DNA of 64,000 bases from contig CBDFLQ010000007.1 in the NCBI GenBank assembly GCA_965249275.1, positions 960,001-1,024,000 on the forward strand, written 5' to 3'. Both the position numbers and the translations under genes were made by a program. Below, one piece after another: positions 1,278-26,896 of this stretch. The number at the start of each line of letters is the position of its first letter. Positions within the stretch are counted from its first letter, which is position 1. The notes under the pieces are model-generated. The model searched no databases, was not told where the DNA came from, and saw nothing but the letters and a program-made list of their open reading frames with translations. The DNA comes from Dehalococcoidia bacterium. GTDB lineage: Bacteria; Chloroflexota; Dehalococcoidia; Plut-88900.

Positions 1278-1796
1278 TCAGTGGGGGTGGGGCTCCGAGA
1301 GGGGAGGGGGGCCGTCCATTCGCAGCATGGGAGAGCCGGTGAAGGTAACTACCACACACGGCATGTTGTCGAGGACCTTGCGAGCGAACCAGAACGGGCC
1401 CCACCACGGCAATCGCAGCCTTCGATTCAACTGGATTGCGGCCAGGGCAAGTGCAAAGCGGCGGCGGGGAAAGCCCGGCCTTTCGGCCCACCGCCCGATG
1501 AAGTTGAAAATGTGAGGAAGCCGGTCGTTGGTATTCCAGAGAACACGCGCTCGGCCCGGGATTTCAAACCAGGGCTCGAACTCCACCGTATTCAATGTGA
1601 CGACCGGATTTGCTGCAATGTTGGCTACCCAATCACGACGCCCAGGGTACCCCGACAAGACCACCTGGTCCGCGCCATTCCAATAGTAGGTGGTCTCTAC
1701 AGTACGCCCGCCGCCTGACCTGCGTCGGGTCATGGTAGTGCGGATACGGAAACTGTTTCTTAGGATGTCGGGAAGGGGGTGTGGGAGGTTGGTCAT
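1278..1796 (-). CDS. Nitroreductase/deazaflavin-dependent (DDN-like split-barrel) family protein
   Basis: TMTRRRSGGGRTVET...SGYPGRRDWVANIAANPVVTL resembles the DDN GRxSG...DWxxNLxANPxV pattern. Confidence 0.55.
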   Translation of the reverse strand: MTNLPHPLPDILRNSFRIRTTMTRRRSGGGRTVETTYYWNGADQVVLSGYPGRRDWVANIAANPVVTLNTVEFEPWFEIPGRARVLWNTNDRLPHIFNFIGRWAERPGFPRRRFALALAAIQLNRRLRLPWWGPFWFARKVLDNMPCVVVTFTGSPMLRMDGPPPLSEPHPH

Positions 1797-20251: not shown

Positions 20252-21660
20252 GGGCGGTTCTCGAAACGCCCCTACGATGGCAGGTCAATCCGGGGTGAGG
20301 GGAGCGCCCCACCCCAGGCGACCGGCCGGTCGCCCCTACGGGAGGGGATGGATTCCGGGTCGGGGGGGAGGGGTTATTCAGTTGGGTCTCGGGGGTTTCG
20401 GTTTTGGTGGGGAGGGGTGGCGATGGAAGACGCCCGTTTGGCAGAGCTGCTTGTTCGTGGACTTGCAGCCATTATGCCCTGATGCTAGATGGTATACACG
20501 GACAATTCTCGGGCCAGACGTCCGGCAGAGGCTCCTTATGGGGGCTGTATGCCCGTGGGGGGCTTGTGGGGGCCAGGGATCCAGCTGTGCGAAGCCCCAC
20601 AGCCTAACTGATAGTGTCCAAGTTCGCCGGAAAAGGACAGGAGCGAATATCCTCCGGGCACCCCCGCGCCTTAGCGCCAAACTCCAGCAATGCGGGCCGA
20701 CGTTCGAGACGATTCTCCATGGGGGTCATGCGGTCCGCGGAGTGTATGCTCCGGTCACCCTTGATACAATCTCCCTGTGCCCCCTGAATTCCCGACTTCT
20801 CGGGAATGACAGAGGGGGAATGGAGGGAGCGTGAAGGCCAGGGCGTCTTTCCATCGCCTGGGTGGTGGGGAAGGGTGAGCCGGAACCTATGGATGAGGAG
20901 ATGGCGGCTTTCGCTTGAGCCGTGGGGCAGCGCGTGGGCTGCCCTTTGGGATGGGCTTGGACGTTGAGTCCTCGGGGGGTCCGGTGGGCTTCCCTAGTTT
21001 TTGGTTCCTCCTTAAGGTAGTTAGGTACGTGTTCGAACGGTGGGAAGATTAGCACGAGTGTTCAGGTAGGGTCAAGGGGTTGATGTCACACTTGGGGAGA
21101 CACCGCCCAGCCCCACCGGGGAACCCTCACCCCCTTTGTCCCCCTCTCCCTTAGGGCCTTCAAGGGAGAGGGGGAGATAAGAATAGAGGCCCACGTGCGT
21201 GCTCTGCACGCACGTGGGCCTCTAATTCAGTACTGGTGGGAGGGGGACAAGGATGGTCGGATAGGCATCTGTGTTGTACAAGCAAGCGCTTTAGATCCCT
21301 AGCGGGGCCTCGGGATGGGAGGGGGCTGGGGTGGAGGTGCAGGGTGAGCGCGATTTATTGGCAGAACTGGGCCTCCCCCCGCTCGACCCTTCGACTTTGC
21401 TCAGGGTGAGCGACCCCTCCCCGGGGATGGATTCCGGCTCTCGGCGGCCGGAATGACGGATGGGGGCTAGGAATGGTGTGATGGGGCAAGTCCTAGATCC
21501 CTCGCGGAGCCTCGGGATGACATGGCAAATGGGGGCGGAGGGGAGAGGACGTGACGAATTGGCGGTTCTGGGCCGCCCCCGCTCGACCCTTCGACTCTGC
21601 TCAGGATGAGCGGCCCCTCCTAGGGATGGATTCCGGCACTCGGGGGGCGGAATGATGGAA
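20252..21660. repeat. Non-coding mosaic of REP-like palindromes, including two tandem composite units (21292-21460, 21494-21660)
   Basis: GGCG..CGCCCCTAC x2; (G)ATTCC..GGAATGA(C) x3; CCCTTCGAC..GCTCAGG x2; TAGATCCCT..CTCGGGATG x2; CCCCTCTCCCT..AGGGAGAGGGG; perfect 19-bp stem at 21184-21224. Confidence 0.8.
21007..21075 (-). promoter_or_regulatory. Putative sigma70 promoter with LexA-like box and strong SD, no following start codon
   Basis: TTGACC-18-TAATCT with extended TG; GAAC-ACTC-GTGC in the spacer; AAGGAGG downstream. Confidence 0.4.
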
Positions 21661-21907: not shown

Positions 21908-22267
21908 ATGGGCAATCCGGTCTTACATTTTGAAATAACCTGCAAGGATGCGGGAGCAGGTCAGGGCTTCTATAGAGACCTGTTCGATTGGAAGATAGCG
22001 TCAGACAATCCTTGGAATTATGGGCTGGTGGAGAAGGGGTCCGAGGAGGGGATCGGGGGAGGGATCACTGGTACGAACCCCGAAATGAGCCATCCCGGGG
22101 TGATGATCTACGTGGAGGTGGAGGACCTGCAGGCGACGCTGGACAAGGCTGAGGGCCTGGGCGGCAAGACCACGATGCCAATTATGGAGATTCCCGGAAT
22201 GGTTACCCTGGCCCATTTTTCCGATCCTGATGGGAATGTAATCGGGATCGTGAAGTCTGCAGAGTAG
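21908..22267 (+). CDS. VOC/glyoxalase family protein
   Basis: NPVLHFEI, FYRDLFDW, GIGGGI, DPDGNVIGI. Confidence 0.9.
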   Translation: MGNPVLHFEITCKDAGAGQGFYRDLFDWKIASDNPWNYGLVEKGSEEGIGGGITGTNPEMSHPGVMIYVEVEDLQATLDKAEGLGGKTTMPIMEIPGMVTLAHFSDPDGNVIGIVKSAE

Positions 22268-22294
22268 GTGTTCAAGCAGTCCTGAGTAACCTCC

Positions 22295-22322
22295 GGCAGC
22301 CGGGCCGCGCGGCCCGGCTGCC
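22295..22322. terminator. Perfect 28-bp palindrome between convergent genes
   Basis: GGCAGCCGGGCCGCGCGGCCCGGCTGCC. Confidence 0.6.
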
Positions 22323-22328
22323 AAAGGT

Positions 22329-22523
22329 TTAGGCGGCTGGCTTCATTCGCTCCGTGTTAACCGGTCTGTTTTGGACCTTCACCGTGCGGCGGGAGACCAT
22401 GGCTGCGACATCGGCCTCGTTGAGGTCTCGGCTGCACTGGAAACAGGTGATGTAGTGGCCGAACAAATCGGTGCCGGAGAACAGATCGCCTCCGCACCAG
22501 GGGCAACCCTTTAACCAGAACAT
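22329..22523 (-). CDS. Small Zn-ribbon protein (CPxCGGD...CxQC), 64 aa
   Basis: MFWLKGCPWCGGDLF...CFQCS; ATG after AGGAAGGAG. Confidence 0.7.
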   Translation of the reverse strand: MFWLKGCPWCGGDLFSGTDLFGHYITCFQCSRDLNEADVAAMVSRRTVKVQNRPVNTERMKPAA

Positions 22524-22781
22524 TGTTTCAATCTCCTTCCTCACCGGTCTGCGGTACACATTCTCCCGAACCCTGTGAAGGCCCGAGACATTTAACGTCC
22601 CTACATTTTCTATAACGAAAGATCGGCGATTTGGTTCCTTCTCGGGGGCCGGGAATTTCCAGAAGGCGTTACAAGCTAGTATTTGCGGCGTGGGTAGAGC
22701 CTTATCCAACGCTGAGCCAAGGCGCGAGCCAGTTGACTACGATTAGAGAGTCGTTTTAGTATTGGATGTCACGAATCTCGG

Positions 22782-22858
22782 GGCGCATTCGTCTAGCGGC
22801 CTAGGACACCGCCCTCTCAAGGCGGAGACCACGGGTTCGAATCCCGTATGCGCTACCA
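22782..22858 (+). tRNA. tRNA-Glu(CTC)
   Basis: GGCGCATTCGTCTAGCGGCCTAGGACACCGCCCTCTCAAGGCGGAGACCACGGGTTCGAATCCCGTATGCGCTACCA. Confidence 0.95.
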
Positions 22859-22925
22859 CTATATGTACGTGCTAGCTATAGAACGCCTTGATGGTCAGTA
22901 CGGTCACCACTTAAGACACCACCTG

Positions 22926-23075
22926 ATGGCTACCCCAAAACGCCCCAATCCTCCACAGAAACCTTCACCATCGCCTCCATCTCAGCCACGTCCCAAGCCA
23001 ACCATTGAAACCTTTAACCCTCAGCCAAGACGCCCGCTTATCTCAGGAATGGAAGATACTCATGGCTGCCTCTAA
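22926..23075 (+). CDS. Pro-rich micro-protein 1 (49 aa)
   Basis: MATPKRPNPPQKPSPSPPSQPRPKPTIETFNPQPRRPLISGMEDTHGCL; paralogous to the next ORF. Confidence 0.6.
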   Translation: MATPKRPNPPQKPSPSPPSQPRPKPTIETFNPQPRRPLISGMEDTHGCL

Positions 23076-23166
23076 TCCGTCAAAGCCTCAACAGAAGCCA
23101 CCCTCGCCTTCCCCTTCACAGACACGCCCCAAGCCCACGAGGGAGACCCGCAGCTTACCTTTATAA
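23062..23166 (+). CDS. Pro-rich micro-protein 2 (34 aa)
   Basis: MAASNPSKPQQKPPSPSPSQTRPKPTRETRSLPL; 16 of the first 29 aa identical to micro-protein 1, ungapped. Confidence 0.6.
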   Translation: MAASNPSKPQQKPPSPSPSQTRPKPTRETRSLPL

Positions 23167-23688
23167 GGTCAGGCTGATCACTCCCCAAGTGGCACCTGTC
23201 ACCATCTCTACGATTAGCAGGTGCCCCATCCAATCTGCCCTTCCCGCCATTTTGTCGAGGAATTCACTGTTGTCGCGCATGTGCTCGCCAGCAGTCTCGA
23301 TCAAATGCCTTTTGAATTCGGTGGGGTCAAGTTCAACATCTGACTGAGGGTCGAATCCCTCGCGATCGACAATTAGTAATCCCGGGTCTATTGTCGCGAG
23401 CTTGCCAATTTTGAGTGTTCGAACGGCGCCGATTCTAATGGCAAAAAAGGCAGCCAAGGCTAGGATTCCAGGTATCGCAGCCCAAAGGGTCCAAGAAATC
23501 TTGCCACCGTTTATTGCGCCTACAATTGCCGGAATGCCGATTAAAGCAATCGTTGATTGTGCAAGCTGGCTCTGTATCCGCTCTTCTACTGCGGATATGC
23601 GCCTCAACATCCACTCATAGGATGAGGGAATGTATTCGTAAGCAAGGTCAAGGGACGGATATTTTTGATCCGGCGTCGCTTTACTCAT
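23161..23688 (-). CDS. Hypothetical 3-TM membrane protein
   Basis: 175 aa; N-terminal helix, two adjacent hydrophobic segments, polar loop, C-terminal hydrophobic segment. Confidence 0.75.
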   Translation of the reverse strand: MSKATPDQKYPSLDLAYEYIPSSYEWMLRRISAVEERIQSQLAQSTIALIGIPAIVGAINGGKISWTLWAAIPGILALAAFFAIRIGAVRTLKIGKLATIDPGLLIVDREGFDPQSDVELDPTEFKRHLIETAGEHMRDNSEFLDKMAGRADWMGHLLIVEMVTGATWGVISLTL

Positions 23689-24026
23689 TGGACCTTAAAA
23701 TGTAAGGCCATGCATTCAGACCGTCAACTAACATTCAATAGACCTGCGGAAATCACTGCAAAGACAAGACCCACGCCCCCGGCGCAGAATGTGCGATCCT
23801 CAGTTAGGGAATACGGGTGGGTGAGACGTGGTCCGCTCTGATGCTATAACGTCCGCGCCATGAATGGCTGAAGGGCGTCGAGCGAGCAGGCCAGTTCGCA
23901 AGGTGAGATTGACCAATTCAGTTGATTGGCCAATCAATAATACGGGTTGCCAAGCTCTAGCTATTCTATTTGTCGACTCTCGGCAGCCTACGTCCAGCAT
24001 TCATTGCCTACAAGCAACTGATGGCG

Positions 24027-25268
24027 CTAGTAGGCTACTTTCGTATCAGTAGCTACCAGCTTGCCCTCTTTGACCTTGTTTACGATGTAAGAGAGATCAC
24101 TGATGTATTCTTCGACTACCGGCTTCTGGATTAACGATAGCATCATGTGTATGGCGTTGGGTTCCTGGATACGGCTGGTGTACCAGCCTGAGTCGCTCAT
24201 GCCGTCTGCGACGGCGAAAATATCGAATTCGCTGGAACCGTAAGTGAAAATGGTCAGTTGCGGGTCTCCGTATGTTTCCAGGCCATCGATGCGATTAACG
24301 CCGTCCATTAAGGCTTCCCTGATGTGGAGAACCTCTTGCGCAATCCTCATATACCCCTCTTCGCCCAGATAGTTCATTACCGCCCATGCGGAGGCTATGG
24401 CGCCACCGGGTCGGCTGCCGACGAATGTTTGGGTCGAGTAGAGGCCTTTCGACCATTGGTCGAAGACGAATCCCTGGTATTCCAGGTACTGGGCGTCGCT
24501 GTATAGGACCGTGGATGCGCCCTTTGCTGCATAACCGTTCTTGTGAATATCCGCGGAGATGGACCTGACGCCGGGAATGGCGAAATCGAAGTCGGGTATG
24601 GAGTAGCCCAGTTTCCTGACAAAGGGCGCGATAAATCCGCCTATGCAACAGTCGACGTGGAGCCAGAGGTCTCTGGACTGGGCCAGTTCTCCCAAGTCGC
24701 CGATGGGATCGACAACCCCATGCGGGTACTCCGGGGCCGAGCCGACCATCATGATCGTATTGTCGGTGATGGCGTCGGACATGGCATCAACATCGGCGCG
24801 GAAGTCAGGGCCCGGGTTTACCCTTACTACTTTCATGTCCAGGAGTTCGGCGGCACGGTCAAACGCAGGATGCGCCGTGCGGGAGGTCAATATCTCAGGA
24901 GCGCCCTGGATGGGTCTATTGGCTCGGGCCCAGTCTCGGGCGGACTTTATGGCGAGGAAGATGCTTTCGGTGCCTCCCGTTGTCATGCTGCCGGCGGCGT
25001 TCTCTCCGCCGTGAAGCAGCCCCAGGCTTAGGTCGATAACCTCTTCCTCCATGTTGGCTAGACTCGGGTAGACCTTTGGATAGACTGCGTTCTCGTTAAA
25101 GAACATAGCGTATGCGTCATGGGCGACCTGTATAACATCATCGCCGGCGTAATAGAGCAGGCCCGAGATTTTCCCGGTGCGCCAGTCGATATCACCCTGT
25201 CGCGCTTCGGTGAGACGGTCTTTTAGCTCGTCCCAGTTGGTGCCGGTTTTCGGAAAAGACTTGCCCAT
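24027..25268 (-). CDS. PLP-dependent group II decarboxylase / sphingosine-1-phosphate lyase-like
   Basis: TTGGTESI, WLHVDCCIGGF, SISADIHKNGYAAKGAS, GSRPGG. Confidence 0.85.
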   Translation of the reverse strand: MGKSFPKTGTNWDELKDRLTEARQGDIDWRTGKISGLLYYAGDDVIQVAHDAYAMFFNENAVYPKVYPSLANMEEEVIDLSLGLLHGGENAAGSMTTGGTESIFLAIKSARDWARANRPIQGAPEILTSRTAHPAFDRAAELLDMKVVRVNPGPDFRADVDAMSDAITDNTIMMVGSAPEYPHGVVDPIGDLGELAQSRDLWLHVDCCIGGFIAPFVRKLGYSIPDFDFAIPGVRSISADIHKNGYAAKGASTVLYSDAQYLEYQGFVFDQWSKGLYSTQTFVGSRPGGAIASAWAVMNYLGEEGYMRIAQEVLHIREALMDGVNRIDGLETYGDPQLTIFTYGSSEFDIFAVADGMSDSGWYTSRIQEPNAIHMMLSLIQKPVVEEYISDLSYIVNKVKEGKLVATDTKVAY

Positions 25269-25396: not shown

Positions 25397-25425
25397 TTGA
25401 CGGGTTCACCTAGGGCCCATAGAAT
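25397..25425 (+). promoter_or_regulatory. Putative sigma70 promoter for the solute-binding protein gene
   Basis: TTGACG-17-TAGAAT. Confidence 0.55.
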
Positions 25426-25474
25426 GCCGCATTGTGCCTACCGAAGAGCCGTTCATTATGATATGGGAGGAAAT

Positions 25475-26896
25475 ATGGTCAAGATCGGAAACACAACTAA
25501 GAAGATGACAAGAGGCCGCGTCATCTTGGGGGTTATGGGCATTCTGCTGGTAATCCTGCTGGTATCCGCGGCCTGTGCAGGACCTGCCGGCCCTCCAGGT
25601 CCTGCCGGTCCCTCCGGAGCTGCCGGCGCAGCCGGCGCCACAGGCGATGCGGGACCCGCCGGCCCGCAAGGCCCACAGGGCCCCGCCGCCGGTGAGGCAC
25701 CGTTGCCCACGGCGACACCTGTTCCCACGGCAATGCCCGAGCCCACCGCCATGCCGGAACCCACTGCGATGCCCGAGCCTGAGAGCCTTATAAGGCCGCC
25801 ATCCGAGTGGACAATAGAGAATCCAGCAACGCGCGAGGAGATAGAAGCGGAACTGGAAAACTACAGAGGCCAGACCATAACCTACGGAACTTGGGGTGGC
25901 GCCTACACCTCCGCAGAGCAAGTGGCATATTTCGATCCCATTGCTGAACAGTTTGGCATCGAAGTAATTGCGGACGGGACTACCAACCCGAATACGAAGC
26001 TGCGACTGATAGCCGAGACCGGCAACTTCGACTGGACCTTCGCCCTGGGGACTACTCCGGTCTTCGCCGAGCTTGGTGAGATCGGGCTCCTGGAACCCCT
26101 GGACAAGAGCGTGGTCGACAACCGGAGCTTTGCTGGGATCCTGAGGGACCACGCCTACTTCGCCGGCGTAGGAGGAATAGCCTCCGAACCGCTGGCATAC
26201 AGCACGAACACTTACACCGAAGAAACTCGGCCCAAGACCATGAAGGACTTCTTCGACGTGGAGAACTTCCCCGGTGTCCGCGCTCTGGACAGTCGTGGAT
26301 GGACGTGGTTGCGCTACGTGACGGCCGCCTACTGGAGCGAAAACCCCGAGCACATAGGCACAACCGATGGCACTCTTAGCCTCGAACAGATCGATGAGGC
26401 CTACACTTACCTGGACGAGCTGAAGCCCCACATCAACGTCTATGCCGCCGGTTCCTCCGACTGCCCCACCTTCCTGATCGTAGGCGAGGTGGACATGTGC
26501 CTCACCGGCAACGGCCGTTTCGGAGCAGCCATCCTAAACGGCGATCCACTGCAGATGTCCTGGGAGGCCGGGCACCTGATGACCACCTTCGCCCAGGTCA
26601 TTCCCATCGGCTTGAGGGATGCCGAGCCTGAGAAATTTGAGCTTACCCAGCTCATCATGGCATACCTCTCCTTCCCGGAGATAAACAACCAGATCTCCCG
26701 CTACATCCAGTACTCCCCCATCAACCAGGCATCTTGGGAGCTTCTTGCCGGTCCGGAATTCGACGAAGCGCGGCAGTTCCTGCCCACCTCACCCGCTAAC
26801 GCCCAATACGGCTGGCTAGTGGACGAAGTATGGCAGACCGGCGTCACCGCCGAGCAAACTGAGCGCTACGTCACCTGGCAAACTGAGGGTAGCTAA
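25475..26896 (+). CDS. Extracellular solute-binding lipoprotein (PotD/PotF-like) with collagen-like stalk
   Basis: Lipobox SAAC; 12 Gly-X-Y triplets; PTAMPE x3; WGGAY and FFDVENFPGVRAL SBP motifs. Confidence 0.85.
   Translation: MVKIGNTTKKMTRGRVILGVMGILLVILLVSAACAGPAGPPGPAGPSGAAGAAGATGDAGPAGPQGPQGPAAGEAPLPTATPVPTAMPEPTAMPEPTAMPEPESLIRPPSEWTIENPATREEIEAELENYRGQTITYGTWGGAYTSAEQVAYFDPIAEQFGIEVIADGTTNPNTKLRLIAETGNFDWTFALGTTPVFAELGEIGLLEPLDKSVVDNRSFAGILRDHAYFAGVGGIASEPLAYSTNTYTEETRPKTMKDFFDVENFPGVRALDSRGWTWLRYVTAAYWSENPEHIGTTDGTLSLEQIDEAYTYLDELKPHINVYAAGSSDCPTFLIVGEVDMCLTGNGRFGAAILNGDPLQMSWEAGHLMTTFAQVIPIGLRDAEPEKFELTQLIMAYLSFPEINNQISRYIQYSPINQASWELLAGPEFDEARQFLPTSPANAQYGWLVDEVWQTGVTAEQTERYVTWQTEGS
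25580..25777 (+). repeat. Coding repeats: (Gly-X-Y)12 and 18-bp PTAMPE x3
   Basis: GPAGPPGPAGPSGAAGAAGATGDAGPAGPQGPQGPA; cccacggcaatgcccgag-type units at 25724-25777. Confidence 0.9.

Follow-up and report, generated by a model that had tools for sequence, protein, structure and literature searches.

A proline-rich micropeptide and its convergent membrane protein form a conserved gene pair in Dehalococcoidia and other Chloroflexota

A nucleotide-signalling domain usually accompanies SLATT proteins, either fused to them or as a paired partner. Most small regulators of membrane proteins known so far are hydrophobic peptides that span the membrane. In type I toxin–antitoxin systems, a small hydrophobic peptide is the toxin while the antitoxin is an RNA. 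Cationic peptides with PRP or KP repeats resemble the proline-rich antimicrobial peptides (PrAMPs) of insects and mammals, bacteriocin genes commonly occur in tandem paralogous copies, and polyproline as well as PPD and PPG motifs stall ribosomes without EF-P. PycTM has been described as being activated by cyclic pyrimidines and as forming a membrane-spanning pore in abortive infection (PMC11224242). The locus analysed here lies in a 64,000-nt stretch of DNA from a Dehalococcoidia bacterium (referred to as the window) and brings together two proline-rich micro-ORFs and a convergent gene for a small membrane protein, the conserved partner of this membrane-protein family being a micropeptide.

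Two paralogous micro-ORFs in a variable spacer

The micro-ORFs, referred to as orfA and orfB, and the features around them are as follows, in window coordinates:

22733..22762, + strand: promoter-like site TTGACT-18-TAGTAT upstream of tRNA-Glu, a consensus match only
22782..22858, + strand: tRNA-Glu gene (anticodon CTC; Rfam tRNA, 63.5 bits), the last element syntenic with congeners before the spacer
22865..23960, no strand: variable spacer that holds the module, with unrelated sequence in congeners
22926..23075, + strand: orfA, basic Pro-rich micropeptide of 49 aa (ATG at 22926, stop at 23073-23075)
23062..23166, + strand: orfB, paralogue of orfA, 34 aa (ATG at 23062, stop at 23164-23166)
23161..23688, − strand: membrane protein gene (175 aa, three long helices), a member of a large unannotated family
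23699..23727, − strand: promoter-like site TTGACG-17-TACATT just upstream of the membrane-gene ATG, a consensus match only
24027-25268: gene for a PLP-dependent decarboxylase, at whose 3′ end synteny with congeners restarts

The original prediction had described two overlapping micro-ORFs of 49 and 34 aa, 136 bp apart and placed behind tRNA-Glu, with the end of the second overlapping the stop of a convergent membrane gene; these coordinates agree with the sequence, and both aspects of the position are seen. Because the offset between orfA and orfB is 136 nt, the two lie in different frames, with the end of orfA and the start of orfB overlapping by 14 nt, and the last 6 nt of orfB overlap the stop codon (23161-23163) of the membrane gene. 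Both ORFs have their own ATG and a Met-Ala N-terminus, and both are basic and rich in proline (29% Pro and a net charge of +4 for orfA; 26% and +5 for orfB). The longest proline run in either is two, as against the criterion for polyproline arrest of at least three consecutive prolines or a known stalling motif. An SD-like site is absent before orfA, and orfB has AGGA at −17 only. The region of the two ORFs is strongly C-skewed (GC skew −0.39).

In an ungapped alignment from the Met, 16 of 29 residues are identical between orfA and orfB, and 8 of these 16 are encoded by different synonymous codons; a recount returned exactly the eight codon pairs listed in the original prediction. Nucleotide identity at codon positions 1, 2 and 3 amounts to 21, 26 and 11 of 29, respectively. 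Because the codons for Pro, Ser and Thr all have C at position 2, which could inflate identity, we ran composition-preserving shuffles, and at no offset did any of the 20000 give as many as 16 identities (mean 8.0, maximum 14), while the Smith-Waterman score of 76 was reached by 1 of 3000 shuffles. By the Nei-Gojobori method, pS is 0.66 and pN 0.22, giving a dN/dS of ~0.16. orfA and orfB are thus genuine paralogues that have diverged in the manner of coding sequence, and the original proposal of real peptides under purifying selection is supported. The window stretch is also covered by contigs from four other public runs, and among the differences listed, the variant strains keep both small frames, with four synonymous and three conservative changes (Q20R, K24R, and T45S); within orfA there are three synonymous and three conservative changes, and no indel is listed inside orfA or orfB, with 47 additional differences lying beyond this listing.

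These observations bear on the explanation that the ORFs are not genes, having arisen either as chance frames in C-rich spacer sequence or by decay of a larger gene that contained an internal repeat. The C skew, the lack of an SD-like site before orfA and the fact that one frameshift would join the two frames all agree with it; however, the paralogy goes beyond composition, the substitutions are mostly at third positions, both copies keep their ATG and Met-Ala start, the frames persist in variant strains, and the same arrangement recurs beside homologous membrane genes elsewhere. This explanation is disfavoured, and we consider it extremely improbable. Decay of a larger gene was rejected in its own right because each copy keeps its own start; it is also countered by relatives that show both a fused two-repeat form and a split two-gene form.

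The spacer that holds the module differs in every congener examined. Synteny with congeners runs to the last base of tRNA-Glu and resumes at the 3′ end of the decarboxylase gene, and the intervening sequence is 1155 nt with the module in the window versus 300-550 nt, mutually unrelated, in four congeners. In an Rfam search of 22000-24500, the tRNA was the only match at a meaningful score. Because no terminator-like site lies in between, the promoter-like site before tRNA-Glu could also drive orfA and orfB; likewise, there is no terminator-like site between the convergent peptide and membrane genes. In one of the public runs (X4), one contig joins 22864 to 23961 as if the module were lacking, which, as a single contig of depth 5.1 and side 30, is a weak hint at a module-free strain. 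An 8-nt direct repeat, CTAGCTAT, is present at 22872-22879 and 23957-23964. Integration at the tRNA is not established because this repeat and the X4 joint do not match exactly and the joint is a single low-depth contig.

Peptide and membrane genes as a conserved pair

In a word-indexed protein search, the membrane protein retrieved only itself and two relatives (P0002, 61% identity; P0003, 77% over 56%). Six-frame genome searches yielded homologues with 27-36% identity in the same genus (7/8 genomes) and in other families of the class, and among 1.84 billion proteins, a profile of 28 members matched 923 representative clusters (E≤0.001), including 704 with E≤1e-10, so that the gene is not the orphan it had been called. 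Class-wide, 30 of 401 Dehalococcoidia genomes have a homologue, and the 33 places concerned comprise eight loci linked to rpsL, the window and 24 others; in a sample of the phylum, the family is present in 7/401 Chloroflexota genomes, the window's own included. Scanning genome contigs with a sub-alignment profile gave nine loci, all in Dehalococcoidia MAGs, and a metagenome scan with the window membrane protein gave 177 pattern matches with none confirmed.

For comparison, each locus was turned so that its membrane gene lay on the minus strand, and plus-strand frames were read around its 3′ end. At 20 of the 24 other Dehalococcoidia loci, a convergent Pro-rich ORF of ~31-69 codons with an ATG start is present at the 3′ end of the membrane gene, its end lying anywhere from 265 nt ahead of the membrane stop to 70 nt beyond it; at five loci, the peptide and membrane stop codons overlap by 4 nt. 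orfB, whose last base lies 5 nt beyond the first base of the membrane stop codon, shares this convergent geometry. Among the remaining four loci, both copies in genome G143 have Pro-rich ORFs that are co-directional with and upstream of the membrane gene, one with a broken membrane gene has a Pro-rich ORF ~400 nt away, and at one (L035) no small Pro-rich ORF was found near the membrane gene. One genome (G059) carries two tandem peptide copies, each with its own ribosome-binding site, similarly to the window, while in three genomes of one genus two repeats are fused within a single 69-codon ORF. Five of nine further places from the phylum search, in other Chloroflexota classes and in a third copy in the window's genome, have a convergent Pro-rich ORF and four have no Pro-rich ORF; both new loci from the genome-contig scan have one in convergent orientation. 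The pairing of peptide and membrane genes is conserved across Dehalococcoidia and other Chloroflexota. The idea that the micro-ORFs form a module with the convergent membrane gene is supported by the recurrence of small Pro-rich ORFs at the same position in other genera and classes; a scan of homologue flanks for small ORFs with a PxPTxET-like motif, which had been proposed as a check, succeeded in the first part, the convergent recurrence at 20/24 loci, and failed in the second, the motif being DPG-x-x-I-K.

The pairing is also specific. The rpsL-linked clade comprises eight loci, seven in congeners and one being a second copy in the window's genome, where the membrane gene is flanked by rpsL on one side and, at a distance of only 12 nt, by a convergent Cas4-like gene on the other, and a small Pro-rich ORF is present at 0/8 of them. 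Beside bona fide PycTM loci of the same phylum, the peptide HMM had a match at E≤1 in 0/10. When the peptide HMM was run over the same 401 whole genomes (about a billion bases), it found 21 places at E≤1e-3, of which 20 lie beside a membrane homologue, with 16 rows being training sequences that match by construction. The places outside the training set are in genomes G302, G263, G143, and G003; in the last of these, a congener of the window's organism, the peptide match exposed a divergent, convergent membrane homologue that the protein search had missed. The single exception is a peptide copy in G149 (L074) with no membrane gene within 1.5 kb. Because L035, four of the nine phylum places and the whole rpsL-linked clade lack a peptide gene, the membrane protein can exist without one. 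Across genera, no further ORF up to 1.5 kb from the pair is conserved. The module is patchily distributed, occurs in several copies per genome and has no other conserved neighbour; it is accessory.

The peptide family and the window peptides

The family peptides are mostly 31-49 aa long with 17-39% Pro and a net charge of mostly +1 to +13. In the family alignment, an N-terminal K-P-x-x-K/R-P stretch is followed by a proline tract of up to 13 residues and then by the core D-P-G-x-x-I-K/R, in which D and P are nearly invariant, and the peptides end with G-A-stop or continue into a further R-P-P tail. An SD-like tetramer is found 4-20 nt upstream of the ATG in 22 of 29 peptide ORFs, and the longest proline run in these 29 ranges from 1 to 13, with 11 of them having at least five. 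In 9/10 pairs of family members, pS is 0.30-0.78 versus a pN of 0.07-0.25, and the differences are concentrated at codon position 3; dN/dS is 0.12-0.32 in 7/10 pairs, incalculable in two saturated pairs, and 0.77 in the closely related pair L032/L034. A database of 5.8 billion clusters contains only seven such peptides among its predicted proteins, none of them named. Against NCBIfam, the peptides had no match even at E≤10, against Pfam one far sub-threshold match only (p47_phox_C, E 0.45), and the ESM Atlas returned no usable match to a canonical peptide.

Proline runs of 5-13 residues in many members, together with genes that converge and at most loci abut or overlap by a few nucleotides, leaving no room for terminators, could mean that the small ORFs act mainly in cis, with EF-P-dependent polyproline pausing and convergent overlapping transcription setting the level of the membrane protein and the peptide being secondary. 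Such a role would leave unexplained why the non-proline motif DPG-x-x-I-K-G-A is kept at the amino-acid level with synonymous variation; moreover, proline runs in the window peptides and several others do not exceed PP, and the upstream, co-directional peptide genes of G143 indicate that the antisense geometry is not essential. We therefore regard action mainly in cis as unlikely.

The small size, cationic nature, PRP/KP repeats and high proline content of the family would also be expected of exported peptides, i.e., signals or PrAMP-like, ribosome-blocking bacteriocins, for which the membrane protein would be the exporter or immunity protein, and tandem paralogous copies are in agreement with this. 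We found no signal peptide, leader-cleavage motif, nearby ABC transporter or modification enzyme, however; there is no conserved third gene, and a 165-aa three-helix protein is an improbable exporter, making export very unlikely.

How do orfA and orfB relate to this family? Both have the N-terminal K-P-x-x-K/R-P stretch and the basic, Pro-rich composition, and MAFFT aligns their KPQQKP and NPPQKP with the family KPT[QR]KP. At the place of the family D-P-G-x-x-I-K they have K-P-T-I-E-T and K-P-T-R-E-T, with only the proline in common. With an HMM built without the window peptides, neither is among the best 25 of 91810 six-frame genome segments; a family HMM built without window sequences and run on four loci gave E 0.017 and 9.8 bits for orfB, orfA being absent among the matches listed, and hhalign of the window peptides against the family gave a probability of 20% over 15 columns. 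PxPTxET, which had been proposed as the motif to scan for, is thus not that of the family, which shows DPG-x-x-I-K and whose profile does not recognise the window peptides. From position, orientation, size, charge and composition, we infer that orfA and orfB represent the small partner and may be homologous to the remaining family, with a weak link by sequence.

The window's genome has four membrane paralogues, three of them with a convergent small basic Pro-rich ORF. Two of the four are:

contig C5, 406061-406603, − strand: paralogue with an overlapping convergent 33-codon Pro-rich ORF
contig C6, 806205-806717, − strand: paralogue with a convergent 40-codon ORF that ends at 806171 and has a P-D-P-G motif

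The remaining paralogues are the window copy and the rpsL-linked copy without a peptide. The peptides of different modules differ strongly even inside one genome, and this divergence is compatible with fast-evolving cognate pairs.

The membrane protein, a proposed mechanism and known systems

The AF2 model of the membrane protein (pLDDT 84.6, pTM 0.73) has helices at 13-59, 68-93, and 122-174. In this model, the first helix comprises an amphipathic N-terminal part that continues into TM1, the second is TM2, and the third comprises a cytoplasmic part that continues into the C-terminal TM. The protein has no Pfam or PADLOC match and nothing above threshold in NCBIfam, and a Foldseek search with the model gave no match in PDB or BFVD at E≤0.001. 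Where longer database homologues are extended at the N-terminus, no clear peptide–membrane fusion is apparent.

Three weak leads, each independent of the others, suggest a likeness to the two-TM effectors of defence systems. First, the best ESM Atlas matches to the membrane protein score 0.95 and 0.94, and 12 of 30 Atlas matches are clusters in which only 11-15% of the members carry PF18967 PycTM. Second, SLATT_1 matches two members at E 0.087 and 0.058, with 12.8 and 13.4 bits against a cut-off of 41, and DUF4231 matches 3/28 members and P0055 with a best E of 0.055; overall, SLATT/DUF4231 scores of 12.8-14.3 bits lie below the cut-offs of 41 and 24.7, and the family is not assigned to either. 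Third, hhalign of the membrane family against 10 Chloroflexota PycTM proteins gave a probability of 41% and E 2.8e-4 over 100 co-linear columns. Neither the window protein nor any of the 28 members has a PycTM match even at E≤10 (Pfam gathering threshold 27.2 bits), and beside the window membrane gene there is no pyrimidine cyclase PycC, its neighbours being the tRNA, the PLP-dependent decarboxylase, a zinc-ribbon protein and a glyoxalase. We conclude that the membrane protein weakly resembles the PycTM/SLATT pore effectors.

Based on these data, we tentatively favour a model, which we consider plausible if somewhat short of probable, in which orfA and orfB are real micro-genes, predicted to be translated, and the small partners of a two-gene accessory module, and in which the peptide regulates a PycTM/SLATT-like membrane effector in a manner resembling toxin–antitoxin or abortive-infection systems. 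In this model, the basic Pro-rich peptide would act in the cytoplasm and bind the cytoplasmic face of the membrane protein, at its N-terminal helix and at the helical stretch that separates TM2 from TM3; that the peptide binds, that the membrane protein is toxic or pore-forming, which way regulation runs and that there is an antisense effect are all inferred. This binding would control the activity of the membrane protein, which, judging by its architecture, would most likely be membrane permeabilisation as for PycTM and SLATT proteins, and the pair might thus behave as a toxin–antitoxin or abortive-infection cassette in which the peptide is labile and has the regulatory part. Mutual antisense interference between the two transcripts is probable as well, given that the genes converge and that their 3′ ends usually abut or overlap. 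The roles suggested in the original prediction, those of a peptide antitoxin, a phage-protease bait or a ligand, with variable residues after ET setting specificity, are candidate roles.

In a co-fold of the canonical L031 pair, which is that of a relative and not of the window, the score was 0.35 versus 0.00 for the best of three controls, rated as 'weak support' against a mark that is reached by 58/80 solved complexes and 2/110 mismatched pairs, with only 7 of the 80 solved complexes and both of the passing mismatches reaching it at 0.60 or below; at least 94% of contacts are shared between runs, and the partner pLDDT is at least 62. This signal, as well as the conserved pairing, fits any binding partnership, including one in which the peptide is a non-toxic small subunit or an assembly or regulatory factor of a housekeeping membrane complex unrelated to toxicity or defence, comparable to the modulation of transporters or sensors by small proteins elsewhere in bacteria. 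That the rpsL-linked paralogue occupies a fixed chromosomal site in 7/8 congeners and that PADLOC matches none of the proteins are in line with such a role, which is difficult to reconcile with the patchy distribution in class and phylum, multiple divergent copies per genome in varying contexts with no conserved neighbour, and the strain-variable spacer in which the window copy resides. In addition, the family peptides are hydrophilic, unlike most small regulators of membrane proteins. Overall, we view a housekeeping role as rather unlikely.

Within the framework of the favoured toxin–antitoxin-like or abortive-infection-like module, we speculate on a more specific scheme, distinctly unlikely as it stands, of a peptide-gated suicide pore with a built-in translation sensor. 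Here, a ~31-36 residue antitoxin, of the smallest kind, would plug a PycTM-like pore via DPG-x-x-I-K, while the polyproline tract would tie peptide synthesis to EF-P and unperturbed elongation, such that phage take-over or translation stress would halt the supply of the plug and the pore would open. Convergent transcription might provide a second, RNA-level lock, and tandem divergent copies such as orfA and orfB might widen or tune the response.

The libraries searched (Pfam, NCBIfam, PADLOC, and the cluster database) contain no name for either partner, and full-text literature searches found no description of such a peptide/membrane module, in agreement with the original suggestion of an undescribed system. 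Our analysis delimits a micropeptide family and a membrane-protein family that are linked to each other, and the comparative evidence suffices to annotate dozens of missed small genes in the Dehalococcoidia, which are abundant and mostly uncultured and whose accessory genes are largely unannotated. Because peptides of ~31 residues can be synthesised, the idea of control by a peptide is directly testable. If a PycTM-like pore were indeed under the control of a peptide instead of a cyclic nucleotide, this would represent a new gating of a known class of cell-killing effectors.

The closest parallel is PycTM (Pfam PF18967), the Pycsar effector, which is of similar size (160-200 aa) and has the same order of elements, i.e., an N-terminal helix, two TM helices, a cytoplasmic helical stretch and a C-terminal TM, as read by eye from 10 Chloroflexota sequences and, on the window side, from the AF2 model. 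It differs in that the conserved partner of the window family is a micropeptide, found beside 0/10 true PycTM genes, and the pairing of a PycTM-like membrane protein with a Pro-rich micropeptide and not with a nucleotide cyclase would be new. SLATT (NCBIfam NF033634) and DUF4231 (Pfam PF14015) give repeated weak matches over the region of the N-terminal helix and the two TMs, while the window membrane protein has no nucleotide-signalling domain. Similarly to toxin–antitoxin pairs, the module is a self-contained two-gene cassette that is multi-copy, patchy and present in variable contexts, and it combines overlapping convergent 3′ ends, a type I-like geometry, with a small, labile-looking partner as in type II; unlike the hydrophobic peptide of type I systems, this partner is hydrophilic, and selection acts on it at the protein level. 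Finally, proline-rich antimicrobial and polyproline arrest peptides are likewise cationic, ~30 residues long and characterised by PRP/KP repeats or long proline runs, whereas the family described here is bacterial, is encoded beside a membrane protein and has a conserved non-proline C-terminal motif.

A variable spacer behind tRNA-Glu

The stretch that separates tRNA-Glu from the gene of the PLP-dependent decarboxylase (22859-24026 in the window) is a spacer that differs in each of the congeners compared (loci L002, L003, L005 and L009, from genomes of the same genus), and the site has the look of a small-cargo hotspot. In L003, the spacer holds another open frame of ~137 codons that is rich in Cys and His. 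The module, comprising the Pro-rich micropeptide genes and the convergent membrane protein gene, is bordered on both sides by an 8-nt direct repeat, CTAGCTAT (22872-22879 and 23957-23964), and in the public sequencing run X4 a single contig connects 22864 directly to 23961. Because the positions of the repeat and the X4 joint do not coincide exactly, they do not establish an insertion mechanism.

Surroundings of the module in the window

Two reading frames from the surroundings are as follows.

22329-22709, minus strand: CxxC zinc-ribbon protein, 126 aa; weak matches, with E 0.005 for Lar_restr_allev and E 0.006 for the ECs_2282 family
25397-26896, plus strand: 499-aa ORF

The zinc-ribbon gene is conserved and syntenic in congeners and therefore does not belong to the module. 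The N-terminal part of the 499-aa ORF contains collagen-like triplets (G-P-A/G-P-Q) as well as P-T-A-M-P-E repeated three times, followed by a long globular part. At ~20680-21660, GC-rich stretches match several separate places in congener loci at 71-100% identity and in both orientations, a pattern at the sequence level that suggests a family of short, dispersed repeats. The region is also covered by numerous spurious frames rich in Pro and Arg.

Peptides and membrane proteins in other arrangements

One polyproline peptide is an orphan.

L074 (G149:C1:3278077-3281154), 1501-1596, plus strand: orphan polyproline peptide, no membrane homologue within 1.5 kb

This peptide, which is followed by GC-rich repeat-like sequence, is a near relative of the peptide of the module in genome G209 (L029). 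Two membrane paralogues in genome G143 (L062/L075 and L108) are preceded, in the same direction, by Pro-rich ORFs arranged as two to three tandem copies, the ends of which overlap the membrane gene's start region.

In the window's own genome and in seven of the eight congeners, a membrane-protein paralogue without a peptide is flanked by rpsL on one side and by a convergent Cas4-like PD-(D/E)XK gene on the other.

L012-L018 and L022: rpsL-linked loci; example L022:793-1479, plus strand, and L022:1492-2013, minus strand
C6:610885-611457: rpsL-linked paralogue, window's own genome

The stop codons of the membrane paralogue and the Cas4-like gene are only 12 nt apart, and the Cas4-like gene matches TIGR00372 under the cut-off (E 8e-10).
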